From an uncultured Gammaproteobacteria bacterium (GTDB lineage Bacteria; Patescibacteriota; Patescibacteriia; UBA11705; JABHMO01), in the NCBI GenBank assembly GCA_964590105.1, contig CAZPYM010000002.1:90697-154696 (forward strand): a stretch of 64,000 bases of DNA. The letters are read 5' to 3'. A program made the translations under genes and the position numbers. Positions 1 through 42,372 of this stretch are shown piece after piece; positions within the stretch are counted from its first letter, which is position 1, and each line of letters opens with the position of its first letter. The notes below the pieces were generated by a model, which saw only the letters and a list, made by a program, of their open reading frames with translations, did not search any database and had not been told where the DNA came from.

Positions 1-220
1 GGCCGAGAAATCATCTGCACGGTAGTAAGAGTCAAACCAAAGTCCGCCAAAATTCCAAAAAACTGCAAAAAGGCCGTAACCGTAATATAGTAACCAAAAC
101 CTTCTTTGCCCAAATAGCGCGTCATCATGGCCACTGCCACTAAACTCAAAATTAAACTGATAAATTTACCGGTCAAATGAATAATCGTGTTATGAGCGAT
201 TTTTTTATTCAAAGTCATAT
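1..220 (-). CDS. Partial CDS, N-terminus only; runs off the window start. Polysaccharide/oligosaccharide flippase-like (MOP/Wzx family) membrane protein.
   Basis: The reverse complement of 1-220 begins ATG and translates to MTLNKKIAHNTIIHLTGKFISLILSLVAVAMMTRYLGKEGFGYYITVTAFLQFFGILADFGLTLTTVQMISR. This N-terminal pattern (hydrophobic TM helices, R/K-YLG) is typical of Wzx/MOP flippases. It is truncated by the window edge, so it is absent from the ORF track. Confidence 0.4.
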
Positions 221-460
221 TTCATTAATCATTAAACATGGGACATTATTCATAGAGAGTAGGGCTACCCTTCTTTTCTAATCTTGTGTAGGAGGGATTC
301 CCGAATCCCGCCGCCCTTTTCCACGTTCTCCATTCCATGTTCCGTGTTATGTATTATGTTTCCCGTATTCCTCATTCACTACAATTCTATCACCAAATTA
401 TTGTTACAGCAAAGATATTTTTTGTTTTTCCGCTAAAATTAAGCGCAAACAATTTAACCC

Positions 461-488
461 TTGACAAATAATAGATATCTGCTAAACT
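461..488 (+). promoter_or_regulatory. Sigma70-like promoter (TTGACA-16-TAAACT) upstream of the nfeD-flotillin pair.
   Basis: TTGACA at 461-466 and TAAACT at 483-488 with a 16-nt spacer. It lies about 55 nt upstream of the AAAGGAGG RBS and the ATG at 542. Confidence 0.4.
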
Positions 489-541
489 ATTCCATTCTGC
501 AATTACGCAGAATTGGGCTCATTGAAAACAAAGGAGGCACT

Positions 542-1174
542 ATGGAAACATGGTGGGTCGCGCTCAGCGGTTCTGAACAGTTTTTCTGGGTAATTGCCAT
601 CATTTCCACAATCTTTTTGCTCTGCCAGTTTGTCATGCTCCTCGTCGGTCTGGATGACCAGCACGATGGGAGCACTGACACTGACGCAGATTTTGACGGA
701 CACGTTGATGGCCACGATCATGACTCTGATTCTGATCATGACCATGACGCCGGCCATCACGGCCTGGCACTCAAGAGTTTCTTTTCCATTCGCAGTTTGG
801 TGGCTTTTTTTCTCGGATTTTCATGGGGGGGACTTGGTTGTTTGGAATCAGGACTGTCACTTTCAGCGGCAGTCGCTATCAGTATCGTTATCGGAATTGT
901 GATGGCCAGTGTGGTTTTGCTGATTTTCCGGGCCCTTGTAGGCCTCCGGAGCAACGGCACGCTATCTGTCAAAAATGCGATCGGCCAGAAGGGCGTTGTG
1001 CTCATCCTGGTCCCGGCTAATAAAAACGGTTACGGAAAAGTGCATGTCACGGTCCAGGGGCGACTCTGCGACCTGACGGCGGTGACGGACGGCGACATCA
1101 GTCTGCCGAGAGGAACCTCCATCACTGTGAAAGACGTGAAAGGCGATTCTCTCGTAGTTGTCAAGGATCAGTAA
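542..1174 (+). CDS. NfeD-like membrane protein (flotillin-associated, C-terminal OB-fold) with a His/Asp-rich loop.
   Basis: The ORF-track frame is 461..1174, but the ATG at 542 follows a strong RBS AAAGGAGG. There are two hydrophobic segments and an acidic/His-rich stretch DDQHDGSTDTDADFDGHVDGHDHDSDSDHDHDAGHH. The C-terminal beta-rich tail GKVHVTVQG...GTSITVKDVKGDSLVVVKD is typical of the NfeD OB-fold. It sits immediately upstream of a flotillin gene, the canonical NfeD-flotillin operon arrangement. Visibly GC-rich. Confidence 0.6.
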   Translation: METWWVALSGSEQFFWVIAIISTIFLLCQFVMLLVGLDDQHDGSTDTDADFDGHVDGHDHDSDSDHDHDAGHHGLALKSFFSIRSLVAFFLGFSWGGLGCLESGLSLSAAVAISIVIGIVMASVVLLIFRALVGLRSNGTLSVKNAIGQKGVVLILVPANKNGYGKVHVTVQGRLCDLTAVTDGDISLPRGTSITVKDVKGDSLVVVKDQ

Positions 1175-1206
1175 CCACCACACAACAACCCAAGAAGGAG
1201 GCTATC

Positions 1207-2907
1207 ATGGTGGCAGGAATCTCAATGTGGGTGATCCTGAGCGCGATTTTCGGGCTCATGGTCTTCATTCTTCTCATCTCGGCGGCGGCGCGCTACAAGC
1301 GCTGTCCGTCCAACAAAATCCTGGTCAAGTACGGCAAGGTCGGCAAGGACAAGTCCGCCGAGTGCATCCATGGCGGCGCCACCTTTGTGTGGCCGCTACT
1401 CCAGTCGTACGAGTATCTTGACCTCATCCCCATGACCATCGAGGTCAGCCTGAAGAGCGCGCTGTCCAAGCAGAACATCAGGATCAACGTGCCTTCCAGA
1501 TTCACCATCGGCGTATCCACCGAACCGCATGTCATGCAGTCGGCTGCAGAGCGCTTGCTCGGCCTGAGCCTCAAGGAAATCGAAACCCGGGCAGAGGACA
1601 TCATCCTCGGCCAGCTTCGCGCCACGATCGCCACGATGAAGATCGAGGAGATCAACAGCGACCGAGAGGGCTTCGAGAAGAAAGTCCAGGACAACGTCGA
1701 ATCCGAGCTGAACAAGATCGGCCTCAAGCTGATCAACGTGAACATCACGGACATCACTGACGAGTCCGGGTACATCGAGGCGCTCGGCAAGCAGGCCGCG
1801 GCCGAAGCCATCAACAACGCCAAAGTGCAGGTCGCCGAGCAGGACAAGGCTGGCGCCAGTGGAGAGGCAGAGGCTCGCAAGGACCAGACCATCAACGTCA
1901 CCGGCGCGGACCGGGAAGGCGCGGTGGTCAGAGCCCAAAACGAAGCCAAGATCTCCGAGGCGGACAAGGAACGCGACGTCAAGCGCGCCCAGTACACCGC
2001 GGAAACCCAGGCCGAAGAAGCCCGCCGCGACCAGGCCAAGCCGAAGGCAGACGCCGTGGCTCGGCAGGCGGTCGTGGTCGAGGAAGTCAAGGTCGAGGAA
2101 CGTCGCCAGCAGGCGCTGGTGGCGGTGAAGGAACGGGAGATCGAAGTAGCCGAGAAATCCCAGCAGGCTACGGTCGTCGTACCGGCGCTGAAGCTGGCAG
2201 ACGCGGCCGAAGCCAAGGCGGACGGCGATCGCCGAGCGGCGGTGAAGACCGCCGAAGGCCAGAAGCAATCGCAGATCCTCGCCGCGGAAGCTGAGAAGCA
2301 GAAGCGGGAACTCGAGGGTCAGGGCGAAGCGGCCCAGATCAAGGCGGTCGGGCTGGCCGAAGCGGCCAGAGTGCAGGCAATCGGCGAAGCCGAGGGCGCG
2401 GCCATCAAAGCCAAGCTCCTGGCCGAGGCCGAAGGTGTACTCAAGAAGGCAGAGGCCTATGCCAAGCTTGACAAAGCCGGAGCACTGCAGATGGTCCTGG
2501 AGAAGTTGCCCGAAATCATCGGCGCACTCGCGCCGGTCATGGCGGCAATCGCCAAGCCCATGGAGGCCATCGACAAGGTGGTAGTCATCGAACAGGGCAA
2601 CGGCGGCGGCGGCTCCGGACAGACCGGGGTATCCCGTTTCACCGGCAATGTGCCGGGAATCCTCTTCTCCTTCCTCCAGAAGGCAGGGGAAATGGGCATC
2701 GACGTCGGTCCCATGCTGAAGAAGGTCGGCATCGATGTCGAGGATCTGTTCAAGGCCGAGGCTCACAAGCCGACCGCCGAGGAACACGTCGACCAGCCGG
2801 CAGTTGAGGCGGCGCCCCCGGCCGCGGAAGCGACCAAGGGGACTCCGCCGGCCATTCCGGCAGATGCCAAACAGGGTGACAAGCACCCGCCCAAGGACGG
2901 CAAGTAA
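1207..2907 (+). CDS. Flotillin-like SPFH/band-7 protein (FloT/YqiK-like).
   Basis: 566 aa with an AGGAGG RBS 6 nt upstream. It has an N-terminal TM segment. An SPFH-like region (KRCPSNKILVKYGKVG...) is followed by a long Ala/Glu/Lys-rich coiled-coil with the EA-repeat flavour of flotillins (AEAEKQKRELEGQGEAAQIKAVGLAEAARVQAIGEAEGAAIKAKLLAEAEG). It pairs with the upstream NfeD-like gene. Very GC-rich relative to the rest of the window. Confidence 0.8.
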   Translation: MVAGISMWVILSAIFGLMVFILLISAAARYKRCPSNKILVKYGKVGKDKSAECIHGGATFVWPLLQSYEYLDLIPMTIEVSLKSALSKQNIRINVPSRFTIGVSTEPHVMQSAAERLLGLSLKEIETRAEDIILGQLRATIATMKIEEINSDREGFEKKVQDNVESELNKIGLKLINVNITDITDESGYIEALGKQAAAEAINNAKVQVAEQDKAGASGEAEARKDQTINVTGADREGAVVRAQNEAKISEADKERDVKRAQYTAETQAEEARRDQAKPKADAVARQAVVVEEVKVEERRQQALVAVKEREIEVAEKSQQATVVVPALKLADAAEAKADGDRRAAVKTAEGQKQSQILAAEAEKQKRELEGQGEAAQIKAVGLAEAARVQAIGEAEGAAIKAKLLAEAEGVLKKAEAYAKLDKAGALQMVLEKLPEIIGALAPVMAAIAKPMEAIDKVVVIEQGNGGGGSGQTGVSRFTGNVPGILFSFLQKAGEMGIDVGPMLKKVGIDVEDLFKAEAHKPTAEEHVDQPAVEAAPPAAEATKGTPPAIPADAKQGDKHPPKDGK

Positions 2908-2925
2908 GCGTCCATTGTAATCGAT

Positions 2926-2963
2926 CTCCCGTTACCACCAAGTTGGTATCGGGAGTTTTTTTT
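2926..2963 (+). terminator. Rho-independent terminator after the flotillin gene.
   Basis: CTCCCG...CGGGAG stem followed by TTTTTTTT. Confidence 0.6.
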
Positions 2964-3040
2964 GACCGCTTATTGACAATTACTAAATTTACCGTCATAC
3001 TTGGACGAAACAACTGTCCTTTTAAATGGAGGTCTCAATC

Positions 3041-3292
3041 ATGCAATTCGTCTGGTGGAACATCGCGATTGCTTGGGCAATCATTTTTGCAATTTTCTTT
3101 GTAATCCTCAAAATCAAAGCATCCAAGAATCCTACCATCTCCGCTCTTACTTCGTCCGTAATGTCGATTGCAGCTTGCCTTGTTTTTCTCTGTACTCTCC
3201 ATTGGATATGCACTCATATCCTTGTAATTTCGATTGTTGCGTTCTCTGTTGCGGTTCTGACAGTAATATTCCTGCGGTTAAAAAACCAATAA
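3041..3292 (+). CDS. Small hypothetical membrane protein (about 83 aa, 3 TM).
   Basis: ORF-track frame is 3026..3292. The ATG at 3041 is preceded by GGAGG. The protein is strongly hydrophobic: MQFVWWNIAIAWAIIFAIFFVILKI... A hairpin terminator follows. Confidence 0.4.
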   Translation: MQFVWWNIAIAWAIIFAIFFVILKIKASKNPTISALTSSVMSIAACLVFLCTLHWICTHILVISIVAFSVAVLTVIFLRLKNQ

Positions 3293-3298
3293 ACGTCA

Positions 3299-3329
3299 AA
3301 ACCAGCCCCTTACCGAGCTGGTTTTTTTA
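3299..3329 (+). terminator. Rho-independent terminator.
   Basis: ACCAGC-10 nt-GCTGGT stem followed by TTTTTTT. Confidence 0.45.
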
Positions 3330-3485
3330 TTCTTGAACTCTAATCTTTTATTTTTATTCTTCTCCCTACACTCCGCGCCCCACGTTATGCGTTATATATG
3401 GAAATTGAGATGTAACCACGCTCCTCGCAAAAAAAAGGGGTGGTAGACCTGTAAATTTTAGATTTTTAGTTTCAAATTTCCTTTT

Positions 3486-3540
3486 GCGCCAGAGGCGCAT
3501 CCACCTTTGGCGGAGGATTTTGTCCCGCCATGGCGGGATG
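3486..3540. repeat. GC-rich hairpin-pair intergenic repeat, copy A. Family members also at 11269-11298 and 20142-20186, with a related patch at 9080-9160.
   Basis: GCGCCAGAGGCGC, then ATCCACCTTTGGCGGAGGA, then TCCCGCCATGGCGGGA. The reverse complement reads CCGCCAAAGGTGGATGCGCCTCTGGCGCAAAAGG, which closely matches copies B and C. Confidence 0.5.
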
Positions 3541-3551
3541 GGCTTTGGGCT

Positions 3552-3815
3552 TTATTTCACTGGATCATTCCCACCTTTTGAAAACGGGTTACATCGCAAA
3601 ACACGCCAAATCGCCTTAGAGCCGCCCTTGAATACGCCATACTTTTCAACAGCTTCATAACCATACTGCGAACAAGTCGGATGAAACCGGCAATAACCAC
3701 CCGGAAACATATGTTTCAGCGGACCATGGTCAAAAGACAAAGTGTTCTGATATATTCTAATCATTTTAAGCAAAACAATCCGAGGATAATATTTAAATAT
3801 TGAGATCTTCGTCAT
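3552..3815 (-). CDS. yidD: Membrane protein insertion efficiency factor YidD.
   Basis: The C-terminal half, [47 protein letters not shown], matches the conserved YidD/DUF37 motif (CRF.PTCS.Y..EA...G...G..L...R.LRC.P...GG.DPV). It lies directly downstream of rnpA as in the canonical rpmH-rnpA-yidD cluster. The start is uncertain; M at 3815 or 3764 are both possible, and the ORF-track start at 3863 is an unlikely upstream extension. Confidence 0.8.
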
Positions 3816-3849
3816 AAAATAAAAAGTGGGGGGGGAAAGGTGACACCAA

Positions 3850-4206
3850 TTATAACAGGCCAACTTGTTTAAGTAAATAAATCAGTTCTTTTTCGATGAC
3901 TAAATATTCTTTGTCTTTAATTGCCGACTTAACAATAATCAAACAATCATTTTTGATTTTTAATTTATCTAATTTAAGTCTGATTATTTCGCGCAACTGC
4001 CTTTTGATTTTATTCCTACCGGTAGCTCGCTTGTCAATTTTATTACTAATAATAAACCCAAACCGCGGATTATCAATTCCATTATTAAAACACTTGACAA
4101 TCAAAAGCTGCCCGGCCGTATTTCTACCTTTCTTTTGCTTGAATTCCCGACCAAAAAAAGCATCAAATTCTTTTTGTTTGGTAATTCTATTTTTTTTGTC
4201 CAACAT
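3850..4206 (-). CDS. rnpA: Ribonuclease P protein component.
   Basis: 118 aa, basic. [31 protein letters not shown]...[28 protein letters not shown] is typical of RnpA. It lies between rpmH and yidD. Confidence 0.85.
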
Positions 4207-4772: not shown

Positions 4773-6152
4773 ATGGAAGATCAAAATCTACAACTTTGGC
4801 AAGCAGTGCTGGGCGAACTCGAGCTAACGCTGAGTAAGGCAAGCTTTACCACTTGGCTGAAAAATACTTTTATTATTGAAAATGAAGACGGCCGGATTGT
4901 TATCGGCGTGCCGAATACTTTTTCCCAAGCCTGGCTAAAACAAAAATATCATCAGAAAATTTACAACCTAATACAATCAAAAACCAAAGACCGAATTAAA
5001 GAAATCCACTATAAAGTCCAAAGCGTAAAAAATTATCAGGAAGAAATTAAAACACTGAAAAAACAAATTGTTGAAACAGCTCAAAATCAAGTAATACCCA
5101 CCAACCCTTCTTCCCCGACAAAAGTTCTGGGGCTCAATCCCAAGTATATATTTAACAATTTTATTGTTGGTAAAGGCAATGAACTGGCGCACGCCGCTTC
5201 CATTGCCGTGTCAGAACGACCGGGATTAACTTATAATCCTCTTTTTATTTACGGCGGCGTTGGTCTCGGAAAAACTCACTTATTGCATGCCGTTGGCAAT
5301 ACTATTTCTGCAAAAGATCCGAGTAAAAAAATTCTTTACGTTACTTGTGAGCAATTTACAAATGATTTCATAAGCGCCATCTCTTCCGGCCGAGCGGAAA
5401 AATTTAATATTGCCTACCGCACAGTGGATGTCCTCCTGATCGACGATATTCAATTTCTAACCGGCAAAGAAGGAACACAGGAAGCGTTTTTTCATACTTT
5501 TAATGACCTTCACCAGCGGGACAAACAAATTGTTTTGACTTCCGACCGACCGCCAAAAGCGATCGCCACGCTGGAAGACCGGCTTCTCTCAAGGTTTGAA
5601 TGGGGGATGATCGCTGATATTTCTCAGCCTGATCTTGAGACCAGAATTGCCATTTTAGAAGCAAAATGCCAGGAAAAAGAATTTGAATTGGAACGGGACA
5701 TCATTCAATATATTACCCTGAATATTCAAAACAACATTCGGGAGCTCGAAGGCGCTCTAAATAAAATAATAGCTTATCATCAACTGAACAAAATCACTCC
5801 CACCCTTGAAAACGTTAAAAAGATACTTTTTTCCATTTCCACTTCCAGCAAAAAAACCGGCGCTGTGTCCGCTCGTCAGCTGATTGAACTGGTTTGCGAT
5901 TTTTATGATTTGACAATTGACGATATGCTCGGCAAGAGCCGGGAAAAAAGACTGGCTTTCCCTCGCCAAATCATTATGTTTCTTCTTCGGGAAGAACTTC
6001 AATGCTCTTATCCAATGATTGGCAATGAACTCGGCGGCCGTGACCACACCACGGCTATGCACGCCCACGAAAAAATTTCCAGAGTCATGGAGTCGGATGA
6101 AAAAACCAGGCAGGAAATAAATTTAATCAAGCAAAGAGTTTACGCGCACTGA
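4773..6152 (+). CDS. dnaA: Chromosomal replication initiator protein DnaA.
   Basis: 459 aa. Walker A GGVGLGKTHLLHA, the AAA+ box LLIDDIQFL, sensor motifs and the C-terminal DNA-binding domain (LGKSREKRLAFPRQIIMFLLRE...GGRDHTTAMHAHEKI) are all present. Confidence 0.97.
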   Translation: MEDQNLQLWQAVLGELELTLSKASFTTWLKNTFIIENEDGRIVIGVPNTFSQAWLKQKYHQKIYNLIQSKTKDRIKEIHYKVQSVKNYQEEIKTLKKQIVETAQNQVIPTNPSSPTKVLGLNPKYIFNNFIVGKGNELAHAASIAVSERPGLTYNPLFIYGGVGLGKTHLLHAVGNTISAKDPSKKILYVTCEQFTNDFISAISSGRAEKFNIAYRTVDVLLIDDIQFLTGKEGTQEAFFHTFNDLHQRDKQIVLTSDRPPKAIATLEDRLLSRFEWGMIADISQPDLETRIAILEAKCQEKEFELERDIIQYITLNIQNNIRELEGALNKIIAYHQLNKITPTLENVKKILFSISTSSKKTGAVSARQLIELVCDFYDLTIDDMLGKSREKRLAFPRQIIMFLLREELQCSYPMIGNELGGRDHTTAMHAHEKISRVMESDEKTRQEINLIKQRVYAH

Positions 6153-6457
6153 TATCCTGTGGAAAACTCCCCGGTTTCAAGGGATAAAATAAGTGGATAA
6201 AAACAAGTCCAATCTGTTCATAAATATCTACCTCGCGGTTTTCCTTCAATAGTCTGTTTTTGTCCCCTGCTCTGATACAGGCATATCAACAATTCATCCA
6301 TAGACCTGTTTGCATAAAATTAAATTAAACAAAGGCTTATCCACCGCTATCCACAGCATTATTATTATTATTATTTTTATATATATATAATTTCTTATAA
6401 TAAGAAGAAGAGCAAATCAATTAAATAGAAAAAAATAAGTCATAAAAAAACTGGGAT
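6153..6457. promoter_or_regulatory. Likely oriC: a DnaA-box cluster plus an AT-rich DNA unwinding element between dnaA and dnaN.
   Basis: DnaA-box matches: TGTGGAAAA at 6158-6166 (reverse complement TTTTCCACA), AGTGGATAA at 6192-6200 (reverse complement TTATCCACT), TTATCCACC at 6337-6345 and CTATCCACA at 6347-6355. A nearly pure AT tract ATTATTATTATTATTTTTATATATATATAATTT follows at 6357-6400. Confidence 0.75.
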
Positions 6458-7585
6458 ATGAAATTAACTTGCTTGCAAGAAAATTTAAACTTCGGACTGC
6501 AGTCAACAGGACATTTGGTAAATAAAAATATTAATTTACCGATTCTTAGTAATGTACTTCTAGAAGCCAAGGAAGGAACCTTAAAACTCTCAAGCACGAA
6601 TCTTGAAATCGGCATCAGCTGTGTGGTTCGTTGCAAAGTTGAAACAGAAGGGTCTTTTACTGTTGACGCCAGGCTTTTGTCTGAATATATAAATTTATTG
6701 CCCAATGAACAAGTAAATATAAATTTAGCTAGTGATGATTTTTTGAAAGTAGCCTGTCGAAATTCAGAAACCAAAATAAAGGGCATCGTGGCGGATGACT
6801 TCCCTGTCATTCCAAAAATCGACAAGCAAAATCCGTATCGTGTAAAAATAGATGAATTTAAAAAAGCAATTTCGCAAGTAATTTTTACGGTCGCCTCATC
6901 AGAAAACAGACCGGAGATTAGTGGAGTATTGCTTAGTTTTAATAAGTTTAAGAAAAATGAATTATTTTTAGCTGGCACGGACAGCTACCGTTTGGCGGAA
7001 AAAAGTGTCGCCCTGGTTGAAGGTCAACAAGAGCAAGACGTGATAGTTCCACTAAAAACAATGCAGGAAGTTTTGCGAATATTGAATAATTTGAAAGATC
7101 AGGCCAATAATGTTGAACAGCTGGACATTTATATTTCAGAAAATCAAATTCTATTTAATTGCGATTCGATTGAATTAATTTCCCGACTGCTTGAAGGGCA
7201 GTATCCTGATTATAAACAAATAATTCCGCAAGAAACAAAAACCAAGATCATAACTTCGGTTGCCGAGCTAAGCAAAGCCATAAAAAAAGTGGCGTTATTT
7301 TCCAAAGCCGGAATTTTTGATATTAATTTAGTATTTGAAGCTCAAAAAGGACTGACAGTCAGCGCAGTGAATACTCAAGTCGGAGAAAGTAAAACTGATC
7401 TTGATGTAGAATTTACCGGCGAAACAAATGATACAACTTTGAACTTTCGATATTTATTGGACGGCTTGAATAATCTAGACTCAAGCGAAGTTGAAATTAG
7501 CCTAGTGGACAATAATCTCCCCTGTATTATGAAAGCAAAAGGAAAAGATGATTATTTGTATATTGTAATGCCGATTAAACAATGA
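6458..7585 (+). CDS. dnaN: DNA polymerase III beta sliding clamp.
   Basis: 375 aa. MKLTCLQENLNFGLQ...LPILSNVLLEAKEGTLKLSSTNLEIGI and the C-terminal LVDNNLPCIMKAKGKDDYLYIVMPI are typical DnaN. It lies downstream of dnaA. Confidence 0.95.
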   Translation: MKLTCLQENLNFGLQSTGHLVNKNINLPILSNVLLEAKEGTLKLSSTNLEIGISCVVRCKVETEGSFTVDARLLSEYINLLPNEQVNINLASDDFLKVACRNSETKIKGIVADDFPVIPKIDKQNPYRVKIDEFKKAISQVIFTVASSENRPEISGVLLSFNKFKKNELFLAGTDSYRLAEKSVALVEGQQEQDVIVPLKTMQEVLRILNNLKDQANNVEQLDIYISENQILFNCDSIELISRLLEGQYPDYKQIIPQETKTKIITSVAELSKAIKKVALFSKAGIFDINLVFEAQKGLTVSAVNTQVGESKTDLDVEFTGETNDTTLNFRYLLDGLNNLDSSEVEISLVDNNLPCIMKAKGKDDYLYIVMPIKQ

Positions 7586-10178: not shown

Positions 10179-11198
10179 ATGATTGAGGATAACAATAATC
10201 GAATTGTCTCTGCTAAGCTTGATGAAAATGACGGAAGCATTGATTTGAGTTTGCGGCCGAAAAAACTCGATGACTTTGTCGGCCAGCAAAAAATAAAAGC
10301 CAATTTGAATATATTTATGGAGGCGGCTAGGAAAAGGGGCGAACCGATAGAGCATGTTCTGCTCTACGGGCCGCCAGGGCTCGGAAAAACGACGCTGGCG
10401 CACATTATAGCCAATGAGATGGGTGCAAACATGCGAGTGACCACGGGGCCCGCAATTGAGAAGAGCGGGGACCTGGCGGCGATCCTTACAAATCTTGAAC
10501 CGGGAGACGTTTTATTTATCGATGAAATTCACCGGCTGAACCGGGTGGTAGAAGAAGTTTTGTATTCAGCAATGGAAGATTTTGTTTTGGATATTGTTAT
10601 TGGCAAGGGACCGTCGGCCAGAACATTGAGATTGGACATTCCTCACTTTACACTGATCGGCGCGACCACCAAGCTTTCTAAATTATCGTCACCTCTTCGC
10701 GATCGCTTTGGCAATACGTATCATTTGGAATTTTACGAAAATGAAGATATTGATAAAATAATAAATCGCTCAGCCGGAATATTAAATGTGAATTTTGTCG
10801 AGCCTTGTTCTCTTGAAATTGCCAAAAGAGCCAGGAAAACTCCGCGCATTGCCAATCGTCTTTTGAAAAGGATCCGCGATTTTGCCGAAGTGAAGAATCA
10901 AGGACAAATTAACCGTGAAATAGTGGAGCAAACAGTGCAGATGCTGGCAGTGGATCAGCATGGTCTTGATGATATTGACAGGAAAATTCTTTTGACGATA
11001 ATTGAAAAATTCGGCGGCGGACCGGTTGGCTTGAATACTATTGCCGCGGCTACTTCTGAGGAAATGGAGGCCATTGAAGACGTGTATGAACCGTATTTAT
11101 TGCAGTTGGGCTTTATCAATCGTACAAATCGTGGTAGAATAGTAACAGATGAAGCTTACAAACATTTAGGAATTGAAAAACGTAATTTGCTTTTGTAA
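10179..11198 (+). CDS. ruvB: Holliday junction branch migration helicase RuvB.
   Basis: 339 aa. [12 protein letters not shown], Walker [12 protein letters not shown], Walker [11 protein letters not shown] and the C-terminal winged helix are present. Confidence 0.95.
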
Positions 11199-29114: not shown

Positions 29115-29354
29115 AATTTTGGCGCTTTCCACCGCTCGGCCGAGTATTCTATGAATATTCAGTAGCCGGAGCCGCAGAGGCGGGTGATTTATTTACTGAA
29201 TTTATATTATCACAAGTGGATAGATTTGGCAATAGTGACTGGTACGACTTGCGTTTTTGACTTTAGTGTCGTACAATATTGTCGGATAGATAGCGAGATC
29301 GTTTTTGTAAAAATGAAATATTAGGTCAATTTATTTTGCACCAAATTATTAGAT

Positions 29355-30227
29355 ATGTCGTCAGTAAATAAACTTATAACTGAATTTCTTTTTGACTTGA
29401 GAAAAAGAAAAAGAACCGAGCGCACGGCGCGCAACTATGATTTGTATTTACGCAGATTTTCAGGCTGGCTTGAGCAAAAGCAGATAGAAAACATGGGGCA
29501 AGTAACGCCGGAACTTATTGCCAAGTATAAAATTTGGCTAAAAAAAATAAAAAACCCGATAAAGAAAATTTATTTGAAAGAAAATACTCAGAATTATCAT
29601 TTGATTGCGCTAAGGGAGTTTATCAAGTATTTGGGAAAGAAAAAAATTTTGTCAATTACCAACCCGAAAATCAAATTGCCAAAAACCCTGAAAGTTAAGG
29701 CCGGCTTTCTCAGTAAAGAAGATGTTCAACTTTTATTGGAATCGCCAATGAAAATTTCACAACCCAGATTGATTCAGCTTCGCGATAGAGCGATATTGGA
29801 ATTGTTTTATTCTACCGGAATTCGAGTTTCTGAGGAGGCAAGCCTGCAGGTTAGCGATATAAATTTTCAAAAACAAGAAATTCTTGTTTGTTCCGGGCAG
29901 AAGAAAGAACGCAGAATTAAATTTTCCAATCAAGCCAAGCATTGGCTGGTTCAATATTTGGAAAGAAGAAAAAATAAAAGTAAATATGTTTTTGTGAGTC
30001 ACGACCGAGCAAAAGCAACAAGAGAAGATGCCGGGCTTAGCGCCAGAAGTTTAGAAAGAATAGTTGAAAAATATGCTAGAGGCGCCGGTATTGACAAAAA
30101 AGTCACTCCGCAGATGCTTCGTCATACATATGCATTTCTTTTGGTCGAAAGAACAGCTGATCCGCGGTCAGTTAAACAAAAACTCGGTCACCTTTCTCTA
30201 AATTCAGCGATGAGATACTTTGATTAA
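29355..30227 (+). CDS. Tyrosine site-specific recombinase (XerC/XerD-like).
   Basis: 290 aa. N-terminal core-binding domain. Catalytic region R..(ELFYSTGIRVSE)...H..LRHTYAF...LGH....T..Y, with the Tyr near the C-terminus. Confidence 0.85.
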   Translation: MSSVNKLITEFLFDLRKRKRTERTARNYDLYLRRFSGWLEQKQIENMGQVTPELIAKYKIWLKKIKNPIKKIYLKENTQNYHLIALREFIKYLGKKKILSITNPKIKLPKTLKVKAGFLSKEDVQLLLESPMKISQPRLIQLRDRAILELFYSTGIRVSEEASLQVSDINFQKQEILVCSGQKKERRIKFSNQAKHWLVQYLERRKNKSKYVFVSHDRAKATREDAGLSARSLERIVEKYARGAGIDKKVTPQMLRHTYAFLLVERTADPRSVKQKLGHLSLNSAMRYFD

Positions 30228-30589: not shown

Positions 30590-30661
30590 GTCCCTATAGT
30601 TCAGTGGATAGAACACCAGCCTTCTAAGCTGGATACGCAGGTTCGATTCCTGCTGGGGACA
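30590..30661 (+). tRNA. tRNA-Arg (anticodon TCT).
   Basis: GTCCCTATAGTTCAGTGGATAGAACACCAGCCTTCTAAGCTGGATACGCAGGTTCGATTCCTGCTGGGGACA. Anticodon loop CTTCTAA. CCA is encoded. Confidence 0.85.
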
Positions 30662-30969
30662 CCATTTCGTTGGTAGTAGAAAGTGAAGAAGGGTTTACGG
30701 GATGTAATTGTAATATTAATTTAATATGACGCAGGTAAGACAGGGTGGATTCAGAATTTAAGTTGTTTAGCAATTAACCCAATTTAATATGAATAAAAAA
30801 AGAAAAGTTGCCATTAAGAAACAGCAAAAAAAGCAGGGAAAAGATGTACGATGCAGGTATAGATAATTTGCTGAAACGCTTGTAATATCAATTTATAATA
30901 ATATTTTACGACACTTTTTTGGTATTAATTTTATTATAATTATTGTTTTATCATGGCATTAATAGGGCT

Positions 30970-30991
30970 AAATGTTCCACGTGGAACATTT
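30970..30991. repeat. Perfect palindrome AAATGTTCCACGTGGAACATTT, copy 1 (core AATGTTCCACGTGGAACATT).
   Basis: Exact 20-22 bp palindrome. An identical copy lies at 31641-31662. The two bracket tRNA-Arg(CCT). Confidence 0.6.
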
Positions 30992-31062
30992 TTATAATCT
31001 GATTCATGCGGGCTGAATTCGTTCAGCGAGTTCATTACCTAACTTACTTAATTTCTTTGCGT

Positions 31063-31134
31063 GCTCCCGTAGTTCAGTGGATAGAACAAGACACTCCTAA
31101 CGTCTAGACGCAGGTTCGATTCCTGCCGGGGGCA
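31063..31134 (+). tRNA. tRNA-Arg (anticodon CCT).
   Basis: GCTCCCGTAGTTCAGTGGATAGAACAAGACACTCCTAACGTCTAGACGCAGGTTCGATTCCTGCCGGGGGCA. D- and T-arms are identical to tRNA-Arg(TCT). Anticodon loop CTCCTAA. One A-C mismatch at the base of the anticodon stem. CCA is encoded. Confidence 0.8.
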
Positions 31135-31230
31135 CCATGAATCACTTGCCCCTTTGGGACTCGGGTTCATGGCAAGCCATGAATATTAGAATATCTGTGG
31201 ATCTCGGGTTCATTCTTCCCGTGCACTTGA
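31135..31230 (+). repeat. Conserved tRNA 3'-trailer element (copy 1), related to the trailer of tRNA-Glu at 47236-47320.
   Basis: CCATGAATCACT ... TCGGGTTCATGGCAAGCCATGAATATTAGAATAT. The copy at 47236 reads CCATGAACCACT ... TCGGGTTCATGGTAAACCATTGAATATAATAC. The core TTCATGG-N4-CCATGAA is an inverted repeat. A third partial CTCGGGTTCATTC lies at 31203. Confidence 0.5.
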
Positions 31231-31640
31231 ACACAGAAAGCAGTACATGGGCAACGGCGTTGATTGTGAAATGAATTTGGAAGCTGTTATCTTTGAGTAA
31301 ACAATACTAATTTGAAGTTAGTATTTTTTGTTTGCTAAAGCAATGTACAAATATCAAGAATCAATGATAAATGGTAATATTGCTCGTATTGCTGGACGGA
31401 TTTTATGAATAATGCAGGATTTGCTCGAATATTAAATAGCCCAATATTTTATAAAACACCAAAAACTGTGGAAAACATGGTGATAACTGTTGATTTTTGG
31501 GCTATTTGTACACACTAGTGTAGCCAAGTGGGGGGGCTTGGGTTTAGTAAATTGGAAATTCGGAATTGGGGTTGATGGGAAATTTAGTAATATTGATAGC
31601 TCAAAAAAAAACTAAAGAAGATTTGCTGGTAAAAAGAAAA

Positions 31641-31662
31641 AAATGTTCCACGTGGAACATTT
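31641..31662. repeat. Perfect palindrome AAATGTTCCACGTGGAACATTT, copy 2.
   Basis: Identical to 30970-30991. Confidence 0.6.
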
Positions 31663-31736
31663 GTACAAACATTCAGAAGGACATTTGATTTTGTTAGTCA
31701 TTTTATATGAATATATGAGTCGCAAAATAATAATTA

Positions 31737-32498
31737 TTAGTATTTCAATGTTTTAGCTGATTTCCATGCTTGTTCGAAAAGTGTTTTATGTGTTTCAGCC
31801 AAATCCTTGTTTTCAATAATGATCACGTAATATTTGTTTTTGTTATAAGGCAGGAAGGCAATTTTATTGCCAAAAATAATATTATCACCGCGACCGCAAC
31901 CAAATTTTTTGTTAAAAAAGCGAATTGTATGATTAGGGTTTTTAATTTTTGTAACAACATTGGCGTATTTTACGTTTGCTTCATCAAGGGGGAGGAGCTC
32001 GCGGGTTTTTACGTCGGGATTTTTTAAAGTGTCTTTATATTCTTCGAATATATCTGAATAAAGATCTACAGGTTCAATAATTGAACCATAAAAAACAGCT
32101 TCTTGGCCGGTTTTCAGAAAATTAAGAACCTCGCGGTAAACCTGCACCACCCCATCCTTTCCTTCAAAAAATTGAACTTCCGGTTTGTTAGGCTGTTGGT
32201 TATATATCGCCATCAAGTTTGGAATAGCCTTTTCTAGGTTCTTCTCTCGCTGCTTTAATTGGGTCAATAGATTCTTTGGTGAAGCGGCGCTATATAGCGT
32301 GGCTTTTTTTGTTTTGCGAAAACTGACAAGTCCGCGTTCTGCTAGGGTTTGAAGGATTACATAGGTTGTCGGGCGTTTAACTCGGGCAATTGTTGAAATA
32401 TTAAAAACCGTGTCTTCGCCCAACTGAAGACAAGTAAGGTAAATGGCGGACTGTTTTTGATCAAAGCCAATTGATTTTAGTGTTTGTGAGAGTTCCAT
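31737..32498 (-). CDS. TrmB-family transcriptional regulator (winged HTH).
   Basis: 253 aa. The N-terminus LKSIGFDQKQSAIYLTCLQLGEDTVFNISTIARVKRPTTYVILQTLAERGLV is a typical TrmB wHTH. A C-terminal sensor-like domain follows. Confidence 0.7.
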   Translation of the reverse strand: MELSQTLKSIGFDQKQSAIYLTCLQLGEDTVFNISTIARVKRPTTYVILQTLAERGLVSFRKTKKATLYSAASPKNLLTQLKQREKNLEKAIPNLMAIYNQQPNKPEVQFFEGKDGVVQVYREVLNFLKTGQEAVFYGSIIEPVDLYSDIFEEYKDTLKNPDVKTRELLPLDEANVKYANVVTKIKNPNHTIRFFNKKFGCGRGDNIIFGNKIAFLPYNKNKYYVIIIENKDLAETHKTLFEQAWKSAKTLKY

Positions 32499-32743
32499 GG
32501 TTGAGGTCTGTCATGCTTTAAGGTTTTTGCGTATTCTCGCAAACACACCTCAGCGCGACAGGCAATAAGCCGTCACCCACCACGACGAGGCGTTTTATTA
32601 GAATACATAAAACCTCGGACTGGGACAGGGTGGGGGCAAGTAAAGTATAACAAACGTTTATTTCACTGTCAATATTTCTGACAACAGTTGCTAATAACTT
32701 GCGTTTTGTTATATAAAATTAGTCAAATAACCTTATATAATGA

Positions 32744-39660: not shown

Positions 39661-39714
39661 TCGGTAAAGTGAATTGCTGGGACATTGACAATTATAGGGC
39701 AAAAGGAGGCAATA

Positions 39715-40719
39715 ATGAACCGAAAATCATTCAAGCCTGGCTATACGCTGGAGAGATTGCAAGAGCTTGAAGTGGCAGTCAGGGCGTGGTACGTCGGACT
39801 TCCAAAGCCGAAAATTCCCAATGCTGTGAGAATTACCGGCATGAGTTCCCGGACTGTTTTTTTGTATTTCCGGGCGGCGGAAAGGGGCAGTGGTCCCCAG
39901 CCATTGGTAATGGAGAGGCTGTTTGAAGCGACCGGAAATCCGGTTTTTCTTTTGAATGAACACGAAAAAGAGGCTTTCCGCGAACGCGGATTTGCCATGC
40001 CGGATGAGGTATTGCTTGGACAGAATGATTTTGCAGAGCCTCCGGCTGTCAAGACCAAAGGTAGGCGGCAAATTTCCATGCCTTTTGCAGAAGACAGGGG
40101 CGCGGCGATGGTCAGAGTGATTGCCGAGTGGTTTGACAGTCTGCCGTCGCCGAAAAGAGACCACGCGCAGAATCTCCTCGGAGTTGACGTCGCCACGGTT
40201 TACCGTTGGATCAAGGGGAAGACATTTCCCAATCTTGATTCTGTGTGCTCTTTGTGGAATACACTAGGAAATCCAGTTTTCCTTTTGCGTGAAAATGAGT
40301 TAAGTATTGCAAAAGCGCTTGGTTATGTGCCGGCGGAGGATTACCCGACACTGGAATCTTTCAGCGGGAAGTCTGTCTCTGACCAGCCGGCGTCCGCGTC
40401 GCTGAAAATTGCTGTCAGGACTGAAGCAGACTCGGTCAACGTGGAAGTAGCTTTTGGCAAAAAGGCGAGCAAGCTCCTGGTTGGCGTGCTGACCAGCGTG
40501 AGCGTGATCAGCGATTTGCTGCAAGAATCTGGTCTTTCCGGCGCGCCGGAGTCGATCAGATACAAGGCGGCAGAAGCAGTGATTAAAATAGTTACAGCTT
40601 TCAATTTGAAAACAGATGATTTTAGAAAAAGAACGCCCGAGGGGGGGGATGATGCGGAAACTCGCAAAAGGATGGAAATTGTTTATGGATTATTTCGACA
40701 ACCAGGAAAGGAGGAATGA
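39715..40719 (+). CDS. Hypothetical protein with two tandem HTH-like repeats (island gene 1).
   Basis: 334 aa. Internal duplication: ITGMSSRTVFLYFRAAERG...RLFEATGNPVFLLNEHEKEAFRERGF aligns with VDVATVYRWIKGKTFPNLDSVCSLWNTLGNPVFLLRENELSIAKALGY. The VATVYRWIKG-type segment resembles MerR/XRE-like HTH helices. GC-rich. Its stop overlaps the ATG of gene 2 (TGAATGA). Confidence 0.5.
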   Translation: MNRKSFKPGYTLERLQELEVAVRAWYVGLPKPKIPNAVRITGMSSRTVFLYFRAAERGSGPQPLVMERLFEATGNPVFLLNEHEKEAFRERGFAMPDEVLLGQNDFAEPPAVKTKGRRQISMPFAEDRGAAMVRVIAEWFDSLPSPKRDHAQNLLGVDVATVYRWIKGKTFPNLDSVCSLWNTLGNPVFLLRENELSIAKALGYVPAEDYPTLESFSGKSVSDQPASASLKIAVRTEADSVNVEVAFGKKASKLLVGVLTSVSVISDLLQESGLSGAPESIRYKAAEAVIKIVTAFNLKTDDFRKRTPEGGDDAETRKRMEIVYGLFRQPGKEE

Positions 40720-42249
40720 ATGACACCAACGAAAAGTCCGATTCAGACATTGCCAATCAAGCATTCACAGTTCCTTTATACTCATTCGCTTGGGATTGAT
40801 ATGTACAAGCCTCTTGACGCACTGTGGGAAGGAATCAAAAACGGCTGGGATGCTGGTATTCGAAAGTTGCGTCGCCCTGGCCAGGGAAAGTTCGACATTT
40901 TTGTGGATTTGATGTTTTACAAGAATCATCCTCTGTCTCCGAGTGGTCCGGCTCTGGTTATTCTGGACAATGGCGAGGGGATGACTTCTCTTTCCTTGAC
41001 CAGATTTACTACCGTCGGTCCAGAAGATGACAAGTTTACCACTTATGGCGTCATGGATCGCAAGCGGATCGGCCGTATTTCCATGTATGCCATGCTCAAG
41101 GAGCCTCTGAAGGGCTTTTGGGCTCTGAGTTCCACTTCGTCGACCGGCCAGGTCCGAGTGGTGCAGATGGATCCTGCCAAGATGGCAAGGGGGGCGATTG
41201 ACACGTATTTTGTTGATCGCGATGATACGATCCTTCATGGGCTTCGACCCGAGGGCACTTTCACTGCCATTGTTTTGCCAAATATCGTGCCGGACATTCA
41301 GAATGAGCAAGCGCTGGTTGAGCATCTTCGCTGGCAGATTCCGCGGCGAGTTGCTAACAATGGTTTCACTCTTCGCTTGAATGGCAATGAAGTGAAGCCG
41401 GCACCTTTGACCGGTAAGAAAGTTGAAGCTGGCGGACTGATCGGCTGGTTCAAAAAGGATGACCGCAAAAAGCCGCAGGGCATCAGGCTCTGCGATGCTG
41501 AAACCAACACTGTGTGCGCCGAAGCAGTTGACATGTCTCGTCATCTGCCATATCCCATGGGCAGGCCGGAATTGACCGGCGACATTTTTATCCCGGGACT
41601 GGCTGCCAATCAAAGGACAGACAGGTCCGGCCTTTCGTCGGTATTCCTCAAGTCCGATGAGTGGATGAGCATCAAGGAGATCTTGTTTACGCATTTTCGT
41701 CCGGTTCTGGTTGAAATCCTGGGTGAGGACGAAACTGGCGGCGGAGTGAATCGCACCATTCGTAGTATTGTTCTGGATTTTAATCAGGTTTGGGGTGAGC
41801 CGCCGGCGGATGTTGTCCCGCCTCCCGGCATCACGCCGAGCGATTTGGATGAAAATCTTTTCATTGACGGGGATCCGGAACCTCCGAATGAGGGACTGGA
41901 TGAGCCGCGTCAGGGGCGGAAGCCTCATCGTCGGCGTAAGCCACAGAAAAAGCCAACATCCTTTGTTTATCGCGGGCAGGTTTATTTCCTGTCTGATTGC
42001 GCCATGGAGCCCGGTAAAACCGCCGAGGTTATGGGCGACAATGTGGTGTATCTGAATAATCATAATCCGCTTTTTGATCGGTTCCGTTCCGCGTCAATGG
42101 CTCTGCGCCTGCATGTGGTGGAGTCGGTCATCGGCGCGATTGAGCGAGCTGACCTAGAAAAGCACAATTACGACATCAATGACTGCTTCAGCGCAGTTCA
42201 CGAAGCCGTTGTTTACCACTTCGGCAAACTGGATGAGCTGAAAAAGTAG
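40720..42249 (+). CDS. GHKL-superfamily (Bergerat-fold) ATPase, MORC/Hsp90/MutL-like N-terminal domain, with a long uncharacterised C-terminal region (island gene 2).
   Basis: 509 aa. Motif I E-x-x-x-N-x-x-D-A is present as EGIKNGWDAG (about residues 37-46). Motif II D-N-G-x-G-M is present as LVILDNGEGMT (about residues 80-90). A glycine-rich segment follows (GVMDRKRIGRISMYA). GC-rich. Confidence 0.6.
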   Translation: MTPTKSPIQTLPIKHSQFLYTHSLGIDMYKPLDALWEGIKNGWDAGIRKLRRPGQGKFDIFVDLMFYKNHPLSPSGPALVILDNGEGMTSLSLTRFTTVGPEDDKFTTYGVMDRKRIGRISMYAMLKEPLKGFWALSSTSSTGQVRVVQMDPAKMARGAIDTYFVDRDDTILHGLRPEGTFTAIVLPNIVPDIQNEQALVEHLRWQIPRRVANNGFTLRLNGNEVKPAPLTGKKVEAGGLIGWFKKDDRKKPQGIRLCDAETNTVCAEAVDMSRHLPYPMGRPELTGDIFIPGLAANQRTDRSGLSSVFLKSDEWMSIKEILFTHFRPVLVEILGEDETGGGVNRTIRSIVLDFNQVWGEPPADVVPPPGITPSDLDENLFIDGDPEPPNEGLDEPRQGRKPHRRRKPQKKPTSFVYRGQVYFLSDCAMEPGKTAEVMGDNVVYLNNHNPLFDRFRSASMALRLHVVESVIGAIERADLEKHNYDINDCFSAVHEAVVYHFGKLDELKK

Positions 42250-42261
42250 TATTAGAAATTA

Positions 42262-42293
42262 GGCGGCCCCGCCAAGTCGGGGCTGCTTTTTTA
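42262..42293 (+). terminator. Rho-independent terminator of the island plus-strand operon.
   Basis: GGCGGCCCCG-CCAAGT-CGGGGCTGCT stem followed by TTTTTTATTTATT. Confidence 0.6.
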
Positions 42294-42340
42294 TTTATTG
42301 AAATAAGATTGATTATTATGTAGGAAAAAGTTAATTTTAA

Positions 42341-42364
42341 AAACGCTCCACTTGGGGAGCGTTT
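42341..42364 (-). terminator. Hairpin terminator immediately downstream of the stop of the convergent 674-aa gene.
   Basis: AACGCTCC-ACTT-GGGGAGCGTT with T-rich flanks on both strands. Confidence 0.5.
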
Positions 42365-42372
42365 TGTTCTGA

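Follow-up and report, generated by a model that had tools for sequence, protein, structure and literature searches.

The ParABS scheme of chromosome segregation, in which ParB forms a CTP-dependent clamp, has been described in detail; a single parS site may suffice for its function and small clusters of sites are usual (PMC7022226). P. aeruginosa carries a four-site cluster beside oriC and one of these sites is enough for segregation (PMC4368675, PMC7022226). The sequence of its parS2 and parS3 is TGTTCCACGTGGAACA (PMC4368675 Table 1) and the half-site mutation of parS2 used in the same work is TGTTtCAtGTaGAgCA (PMC4368675). The parS site of P. putida also reads TGTTCCACGTGGAACA, and TGTTNCACGTGAAACA has been given as the general parS consensus (PMC7022226). 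For M. xanthus, the consensus is TGTTCCACGTGGAACG (PMC7022226 Table 1). When bound to intergenic parS sites, ParB represses the neighbouring genes in P. aeruginosa (PMC7022226).

Here, we analysed a stretch of 64,000 nucleotides (this whole stretch is called the window throughout), which carries a pair of identical palindromes that we consider predicted parS sites. Comparison with parS2 and parS3 of P. aeruginosa and with the P. putida site indicated the same 16-bp sequence TGTTCCACGTGGAACA, and the sites of the window are likewise intergenic, clustered and origin-proximal. In contrast to Pseudomonas, the DNA originates from an uncultured member of the Patescibacteria (contig of about 0.6 Mb), only two sites are predicted in 64 kb and parAB is not adjacent. 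The parS site of B. subtilis Spo0J shares with our palindromes the half-site GTTNCAC (GTTCCAC in the window) and the dyad centre CACGTG, and its role (ParB nucleation, SMC loading near the origin) corresponds to the role predicted here. However, most B. subtilis-type sites involve a T/A variant or are asymmetric (TGTTCCACGTGAAACA), whereas both half-sites of the window carry C/G and the palindrome extends over 22 bp. Several near-identical parS sites that lie within a few kb of each other in the origin region are also present in M. xanthus and Caulobacter crescentus, but there the clusters adjoin parAB and are far larger (22 sites in M. xanthus), whereas we found a pair of sites and no parAB in the about 80 kb that were covered. 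A related half-site architecture is also known from the Noc-binding site (NBS) of Firmicutes, a palindrome with the sequence ATTTCCCGGGAAAT that is recognized by a ParB-family paralogue. NBS sites are distributed chromosome-wide away from the terminus and function in nucleoid occlusion. The palindrome of the window matches parS and not NBS; ATTTCCCGGGAAAT differs from it at the specificity positions.

Position and identity of the palindrome pair

The palindromes were read directly from the sequence, and their surroundings involve the following features:

29355-30227: tyrosine recombinase gene, 290 aa, 740 bp from the palindromes
30590-30664: tRNA-Arg(TCT)
30970-30991, no strand assigned: parS-1 (predicted), AAATGTTCCACGTGGAACATTT, core TGTTCCACGTGGAACA at 30973-30988, between tRNA-Arg(TCT) and tRNA-Arg(CCT)
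31063-31137: tRNA-Arg(CCT), begins 71 nt after copy 1
31625-31662, minus strand: terminator-like hairpin of parS-2, 9-bp RNA stem followed by UUUUUUUCUUUUU, from the terminator scan
31641-31662, no strand assigned: parS-2 (predicted), AAATGTTCCACGTGGAACATTT, identical with parS-1, core at 31644-31659, 74 nt past the stop of the TrmB-like gene
31737-32498, minus strand: ORF with a TrmB domain, 253 aa, Pfam PF01978, E 2e-10

It can be seen that two copies of AAATGTTCCACGTGGAACATTT, a perfect palindrome of 22 bp, are located at 30970-30991 and 31641-31662; they are 671 bp apart (start to start). The exact 20-mer AATGTTCCACGTGGAACATT was found at 30971-30990 and 31642-31661; these are its two copies in the window, where no further ones were detected even when up to 3 mismatches were allowed. 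In 100 dinucleotide-preserving shuffles of the window, 0 matches of AATGTTCCACGTGGAACATT were obtained. When the palindromes are considered as an inverted repeat, their 24-nt arms (30970-30993 and 31639-31662) are 100% complementary and 645 nt lie between them. From the end of copy 2 to the end of the stop codon of the TrmB-like ORF (31737) we counted 74 nt. Re-reading of the sequence and scans for motifs, tRNAs and ORFs confirmed the palindromes as well as all coordinates and distances given in the preliminary description of this DNA. Between 31138 and 31736 we found neither an ORF of at least 60 aa nor an Rfam match at the gathering score, and Rfam searches over 30.2-32.9 kb, carried out at the gathering score and at permissive E-values, yielded nothing above noise besides the two tRNAs.

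Every letter of the 16-bp core TGTTCCACGTGGAACA agrees with parS2 and parS3 of P. aeruginosa. The core also conforms to the general consensus TGTTNCACGTGAAACA, and both copies match the parS consensus TGTTNCACGTGNAACA with 0 mismatches. The general consensus TGTTNCACGTGAAACA is reportedly that of Lin and Grossman in 1998 and of Livny et al. in 2007. When the full-text literature was searched for the 16-mer, all nine matching papers were work on ParB and parS. We consider both palindromes to be chromosomal parS sites, that is, centromere-like ParB loading sites of a ParABS system, with a probability of about 0.93. To judge from its letters, the palindrome is the recognition site of a dimeric helix-turn-helix protein, ParB/Spo0J. 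The CACGTG core with its GTTCC/GGAAC half-sites had previously been interpreted as a dimeric transcription-factor operator. Here, the idea of a unit recognised by a dimeric DNA-binding protein was retained, but the transcription-factor part was abandoned because the core is canonical parS. Such a parS pair is an ordinary and already known kind of feature, and its interest is low.

To define how widespread the motif is, we searched a species-representative genome collection and found the exact 20-mer in at least 120 loci, the GC content of which ranged from 22 to 69% and the flanks of which were unrelated. By our own estimate, about 0.5 occurrences of a 20-mer palindrome are expected by chance in 596 Gb. 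The phyla listed include Bacteroidota, Firmicutes, Acidobacteriota, Planctomycetota, Nitrospirota, Patescibacteria, Proteobacteria, Actinobacteria and others, and among the hosts listed there are Bacteroidales, Ruminococcus, Bdellovibrionota, Akkermansia, Sphingomonas, Streptosporangium and several Patescibacteria. In many of these loci there are 2-4 copies at distances of a few hundred bp, or additional degenerate copies close by. The same perfect sites, often clustered, are present in other Patescibacteria (L038, L072, L133).

For 40 of the 120 matches listed, tblastn detected a Spo0J/ParB homologue and for 42 of them a Soj/ParA homologue in the 8-kb loci; the best E-values were 1e-67 (Spo0J) and 1e-98 (Soj). 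The B. subtilis Spo0J and Soj queries work since they gave strong matches in 40-42 other loci. In a random 8-kb locus, parB is expected well under 1% of the time. Conversely, when 80 ParB-encoding metagenome loci were inspected, TGTTTCACGTGAAACA was present within 3 kb in 71 of them, with 0.002 expected. Thus, the many copies of the motif in bacteria reflect a conserved binding site for a protein and not mobility. Additional copies of the 20-mer, which the preliminary description proposed to look for as a check on mobility, are abundant (at least 120 loci) but have unrelated interiors and flanks. Its alternative expectation for an immobile sequence, namely only two copies and a colinear region in all relatives, does not bear on a widespread binding site.

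Origin-proximal position, relatives and predicted function

The left part of the window carries genes and motifs that are characteristic for a replication origin:

4637, 4688, 6158, 6192, 6337 and 6347: DnaA boxes, upstream of dnaA and between dnaA and dnaN
4773-6152, plus strand: dnaA, Pfam DnaA
6458-7585, plus strand: dnaN, Pfam beta clamp

Over the 6.7 kb that precede the window on its left (L127), the GC skew has strongly negative values; within the window it is positive from about 7 kb up to the end. This skew switch, together with dnaA, dnaN and the DnaA boxes, therefore places a putative oriC at about 6-7 kb. The parS pair is located about 24-25 kb from this putative oriC, and the contig is at least 594 kb long. 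The parS sites mark the predicted centromere region and, together with dnaA, dnaN and the skew switch, delimit an origin-proximal domain; they can serve to orient the assembly and to predict the places of action of ParB and SMC.

By analogy with the described systems, a ParB dimer would read the two GTTCCAC half-sites of each palindrome via its helix-turn-helix domains. CTP-bound ParB would then close as a clamp at parS and slide to the flanking DNA, and the sliding molecules would cover the origin-proximal region as a partition complex. This complex would be moved by ParA and would in turn load SMC, and the sister origins would be segregated in this way. At a spacing of 671 bp, the two sites would represent a small parS cluster as is found near most origins. 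An effect of copy 1 on tRNA-Arg(CCT), which starts 71 nt downstream, is possible since P. aeruginosa ParB bound at parS dampens adjacent promoters.

To explore the conservation of the pair, we compared the region with its relatives. Among the named relatives, a Ca. Kuenenbacteria bacterium (L130) is closest; its TrmB-like protein is 77% identical. In this genome, the gene order is kept (PNPase, S15, Xer-like recombinase, tRNA-Arg(TCT), tRNA-Arg(CCT), TrmB-like) and one perfect parS site with diverged flanks is located between the tRNA-Arg genes at the orthologous place of copy 1. Copy 2 is absent in L130 and in a second relative with 77% identity (L136), and both carry instead a GC-rich terminator hairpin right after the stop of the TrmB-like gene. 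In L137 (TrmB-like protein 66% identical), a perfect parS core is located 74 nt past the stop, as in the window, but its flanks differ. Hence, what is conserved in the relatives is the 16-bp core and neither the T-runs nor a larger unit. The number of sites varies between close relatives, with two in the window genome and one in L130; neither copy is therefore individually indispensable. Such variation is normal for parS. An alignment with relatives had been proposed earlier as a way to see whether the segment between the palindromes is variably present. The number of palindromes does vary, and the conserved inner block of the segment is kept in L130 with one palindrome.

A search for the cognate ParB covered the window, about 6.7 kb to its left and about 10 kb to its right (about 80 kb), and no ParA or ParB genes were found there. 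For the window, this search involved signature regular expressions, tblastn with Spo0J and Soj, and five Pfam scans over 50 of the larger ORFs. When a ParB alignment was compared by hhalign with three unannotated ORFs of about 290 aa, which are nearest to ParB in length, no match was obtained. The ORF at 39685-40719 was considered as a divergent ParB because of a weak helix-turn-helix match but was rejected since it has no GERR box and no ParB_N domain. Searches with C-terminal and N-terminal ParB fragments retrieved 5 relatives and 1 relative, respectively, none of them from this contig, and a metagenome scan with the ParB alignment gave 80 loci, none from this genome. Nevertheless, a cognate ParB, which we assume to be encoded in this genome, is very likely because the Patescibacteria relative L132 encodes a ParB with PF02195 and PF17762 and because other Patescibacteria carry parS clusters. 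As an extreme and unlikely alternative, the genome would be devoid of ParB and the sites would serve another protein. Our literature search retrieved no paper that names parS and ParB together with Patescibacteria; the perfect canonical parS sites of this group, which are clustered in some of its genomes, are for this reason a modest indication that its reduced members have retained the usual ParABS logic.

Alternative explanations and extended palindromes

The complementary arms of the pair, the tyrosine recombinase gene 740 bp away and the two nearby tRNA genes are also what one would expect if the palindromes were the terminal inverted repeats of a non-autonomous element of about 693 bp, or recombinase sites of an invertible or excisable segment (dif-like). 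However, no target-site duplication was detected when the two window copies were checked for it: the outer flanks (...AGGGCT versus GTACAA...) are not a direct repeat. L130 keeps tRNA-Arg(CCT) and a conserved block of the inner segment and yet has one palindrome. Five contigs from different ENA and JGI samples that span both sites are 100% identical over the 1509-bp intergenic region, and among these five neither an empty site nor an excised or inverted form was found; a sixth contig (Logan) ends inside the region and matches to 100% over its 658 bp. In the genome collection, it is the palindrome alone that the loci have in common, with unrelated flanks and interiors. The recombinase itself is Xer-like (its best NCBIfam matches, XerA, XerD and XerC, do not reach the equivalog cut-offs) and looks like a housekeeping Xer-type enzyme because it is syntenic in the Kuenenbacteria relative. 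Moreover, dif sites are expected in the terminus region and not 25 kb from dnaA. Thus, the probability of such an element or of recombinase sites is close to nil. With these data, the MITE-like element of the preliminary description is not supported, given the missing duplication, the single palindrome of L130 and the five identical contigs. Its integration hotspot is not supported either, since the Xer-like recombinase is part of a conserved synteny (S15, xer, tRNA-Arg, tRNA-Arg, TrmB-like) in the Kuenenbacteria relative.

Symmetric half-sites and the location of copy 1 at 71 nt upstream of tRNA-Arg(CCT) would also suit paired operators of the TrmB-like protein or of another dimeric regulator, which control this tRNA gene or adjacent genes, and an effect on transcription is conceivable since ParB bound to intergenic parS represses the neighbours in P. 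aeruginosa (PMC7022226). On the other hand, the upstream region of the TrmB-like gene (32499-32740) does not carry a copy and copy 2 lies beyond the 3' end of this gene. The TrmB homologues of the relatives are not associated with the site in a fixed manner, as L132 has three TrmB paralogues with no site within 20 kb of them, and across phyla the distribution of the motif tracks parAB and not TrmB. We therefore regard operators as extremely improbable, and the TrmB operator that had been suggested earlier was dismissed for the lack of an upstream copy and of a consistent association in relatives. A false lead is thereby removed, since a MITE, a novel operator and an integration hotspot are not supported at this locus.

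The palindromes might also be primarily intrinsic, rho-independent terminators, with copy 2 serving the mRNA of the TrmB-like gene on the minus strand and copy 1 a plus-strand transcript that comes from tRNA-Arg(TCT) and a small ORF (30789-30866). On the minus strand, copy 2 forms a 9-bp hairpin followed by TTTTTTTCTTTTT (U7CU5), which was reported by the terminator scan, and its RNA fold has a free energy of -9.8 kcal/mol (z-score -2.5). Copy 1 is directly followed by TTTTTATAA on the plus strand, but it fits the pattern of hairpin and U-tract weakly. A terminator function would also agree with the classical GC-rich terminators that L130 and L136 carry in the place of copy 2 and with some instances in other phyla that lie within long terminator-like palindromes (L021, L109). 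However, a terminator needs no exact 20-mer common to many phyla at 22-69% GC, and the stem of copy 2 involves only 3 G-C pairs. The orthologous sites of L130 (...ACATCTCGA) and L137 (...ACAAAACGC) are free of T-runs while their parS core is intact, and when 147 instances of the motif were inspected, 22 had a T-rich tail, 24 an A-rich lead and 4 both. A primary function as terminators is thus very unlikely. For parS-2, an additional function is conceivable: because of the minus-strand hairpin and the U-tract that follows it, this copy may also terminate the TrmB-like gene. Such a role would be secondary and at most a local add-on, as the T-run is missing at the orthologous site of L137.

Combination of the two functions, with parS-2 acting as ParB loading site and as an RNA terminator that replaces the GC-rich one of the relatives, together with an origin of parS sites by hairpin formation or template switching, appears unlikely as a whole. 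As to the extended symmetry of the motif, the bases just outside the 20-mer were complementary in 63% and 56% of the 147 instances, whereas the controls gave 34% and 31%. Moreover, in one member of the Patescibacteria (L072) parS copies are nested within split parS half-sites. These extended and nested palindromes hint that parS sites across phyla tend toward longer palindromes and that they may be created or copied by a hairpin- or template-switch-based mechanism.

Palindrome extension and dense clusters of parS sites

The exact 20-mer of the two window palindromes, which we read as chromosomal parS (ParB loading sites), was examined for palindrome extension in 147 instances among the matches listed (loci L001-L120 of the genome collection), and shuffled partners were used as control. 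Here, we found that the flanks of the 20-mer extend the palindrome above chance. The first two positions outside it were complementary in 63% and 56% of these instances versus 34% and 31% in the shuffled-partner controls, and four or more extra pairs were present in about 19%. A few of the instances listed, for example those of loci L021, L056 and L109, are long terminator-like hairpins.

Dense parS clusters were located in two other Patescibacteria:

L072, 6860-8000: parS cluster, Patescibacteria group bacterium RA.bin89 (JAKLIO010000008.1)
L133, 5507-6390: parS cluster, Patescibacteria (GCA_030837625.1, JAUPKF010000002.1)

In the L072 cluster, exact copies of the 20-mer occur four times at intervals of about 340 bp, together with the variants TGTTCCACGTGAAACA and ATTGTTCCACGTGGAACAAT. 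Several of its sites are composite and nested: two parS half-sites enclose a complete parS with palindromic arms (AATGTTCCAC ... parS ... GTGGAACATT). Between the half-sites of one pair there is a GC-rich hairpin. This arrangement looks as if palindromes had grown within palindromes at the parS dyad. Locus L133 carries four perfect parS sites and two with two mismatches in about 900 bp. All six are located inside an open reading frame of the Wzy_C family (696 aa, 4928-7018), which is an unusual density for sites in coding sequence.

A conserved block in the non-coding stretch and the 3' end of the TrmB-like gene

Within the 600-bp non-coding stretch, a block of about 60 nt (TTTG..ACACTAGTGTGGACAAATAG-N14-CTTTTCAACA-N-GTTATCCACA) is kept across four relatives:

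31467-31527, minus strand: copy in the window
10823-10885: copy in L130, the Ca. Kuenenbacteria relative
about 1890-1955: copy in L136
about 1100-1165: copy in L137

DnaA-box-like 9-mers were found inside this block. L130 and L136 carry a perfect TTATCCACA, and L137 has an inverted pair of TTGTCCACA; in the window copy the 9-mers are degenerate. The block could be a DnaA-box cluster adjoining parS or else a promoter or regulatory site.

Immediately 3' of the TrmB-like gene, L130 (10763-10815) and L136 (1778-1815), both relatives at 77% identity, carry a GC-rich hairpin followed by a T-run, which is a classical terminator. In the window (31641-31736) and in L137 (66% identity), a parS site about 74 nt past the stop takes the place of this terminator.

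The tRNA-Arg pair and its surroundings

The tRNA-Arg(TCT) and tRNA-Arg(CCT) genes share 83% identity over 69 nt (30597-30665 vs 31070-31138), and they are also neighbours in the Kuenenbacteria relative. This identity and the conserved adjacency suggest that the pair arose long ago by tandem duplication and that an anticodon changed afterwards. Directly 3' of tRNA-Arg(CCT), positions 31138-31215 hold an imperfect 19-nt direct repeat (CTTTGGGACTCGGGTTCAT / CTGTGGATCTCGGGTTCAT, spacing 43 nt) with a small hairpin, TTCATGGCAAGCCATGAA, between its copies. The repeat could be a tRNA 3'-processing signal, a terminator signal or a remnant.

Two features lie between tRNA-Arg(TCT) and parS-1 (30970-30991):

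30789-30866, plus strand: small unannotated open reading frame, very basic product MNKKRKVAIKKQQKKQGKDVRCRYR
30900-30916: 17-mer AATATTTTACGACACTT, identical in L130

The 24-nt start region of the small reading frame is identical in L130 and the frame is also preserved there. The 17-mer has an inverted partner, AGTGTCGTACAATATT, at 29265-29280 (94% match), which precedes the gene for the Xer-like recombinase by about 80 nt. The 17-mer and its partner may represent a promoter or operator element common to both places.

GC-rich islands

Two islands (1-4000 and 40000-46000) have a GC content of 46-51% versus about 36-43% elsewhere in the window:

1207-2907: flotillin/SPFH gene, first island
39685-40719, 40720-42249 and 42373-44397: large open reading frames without Pfam domains, second island

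Both islands may have been acquired horizontally. An H+-pyrophosphatase gene lies beside the large reading frames of the second island.
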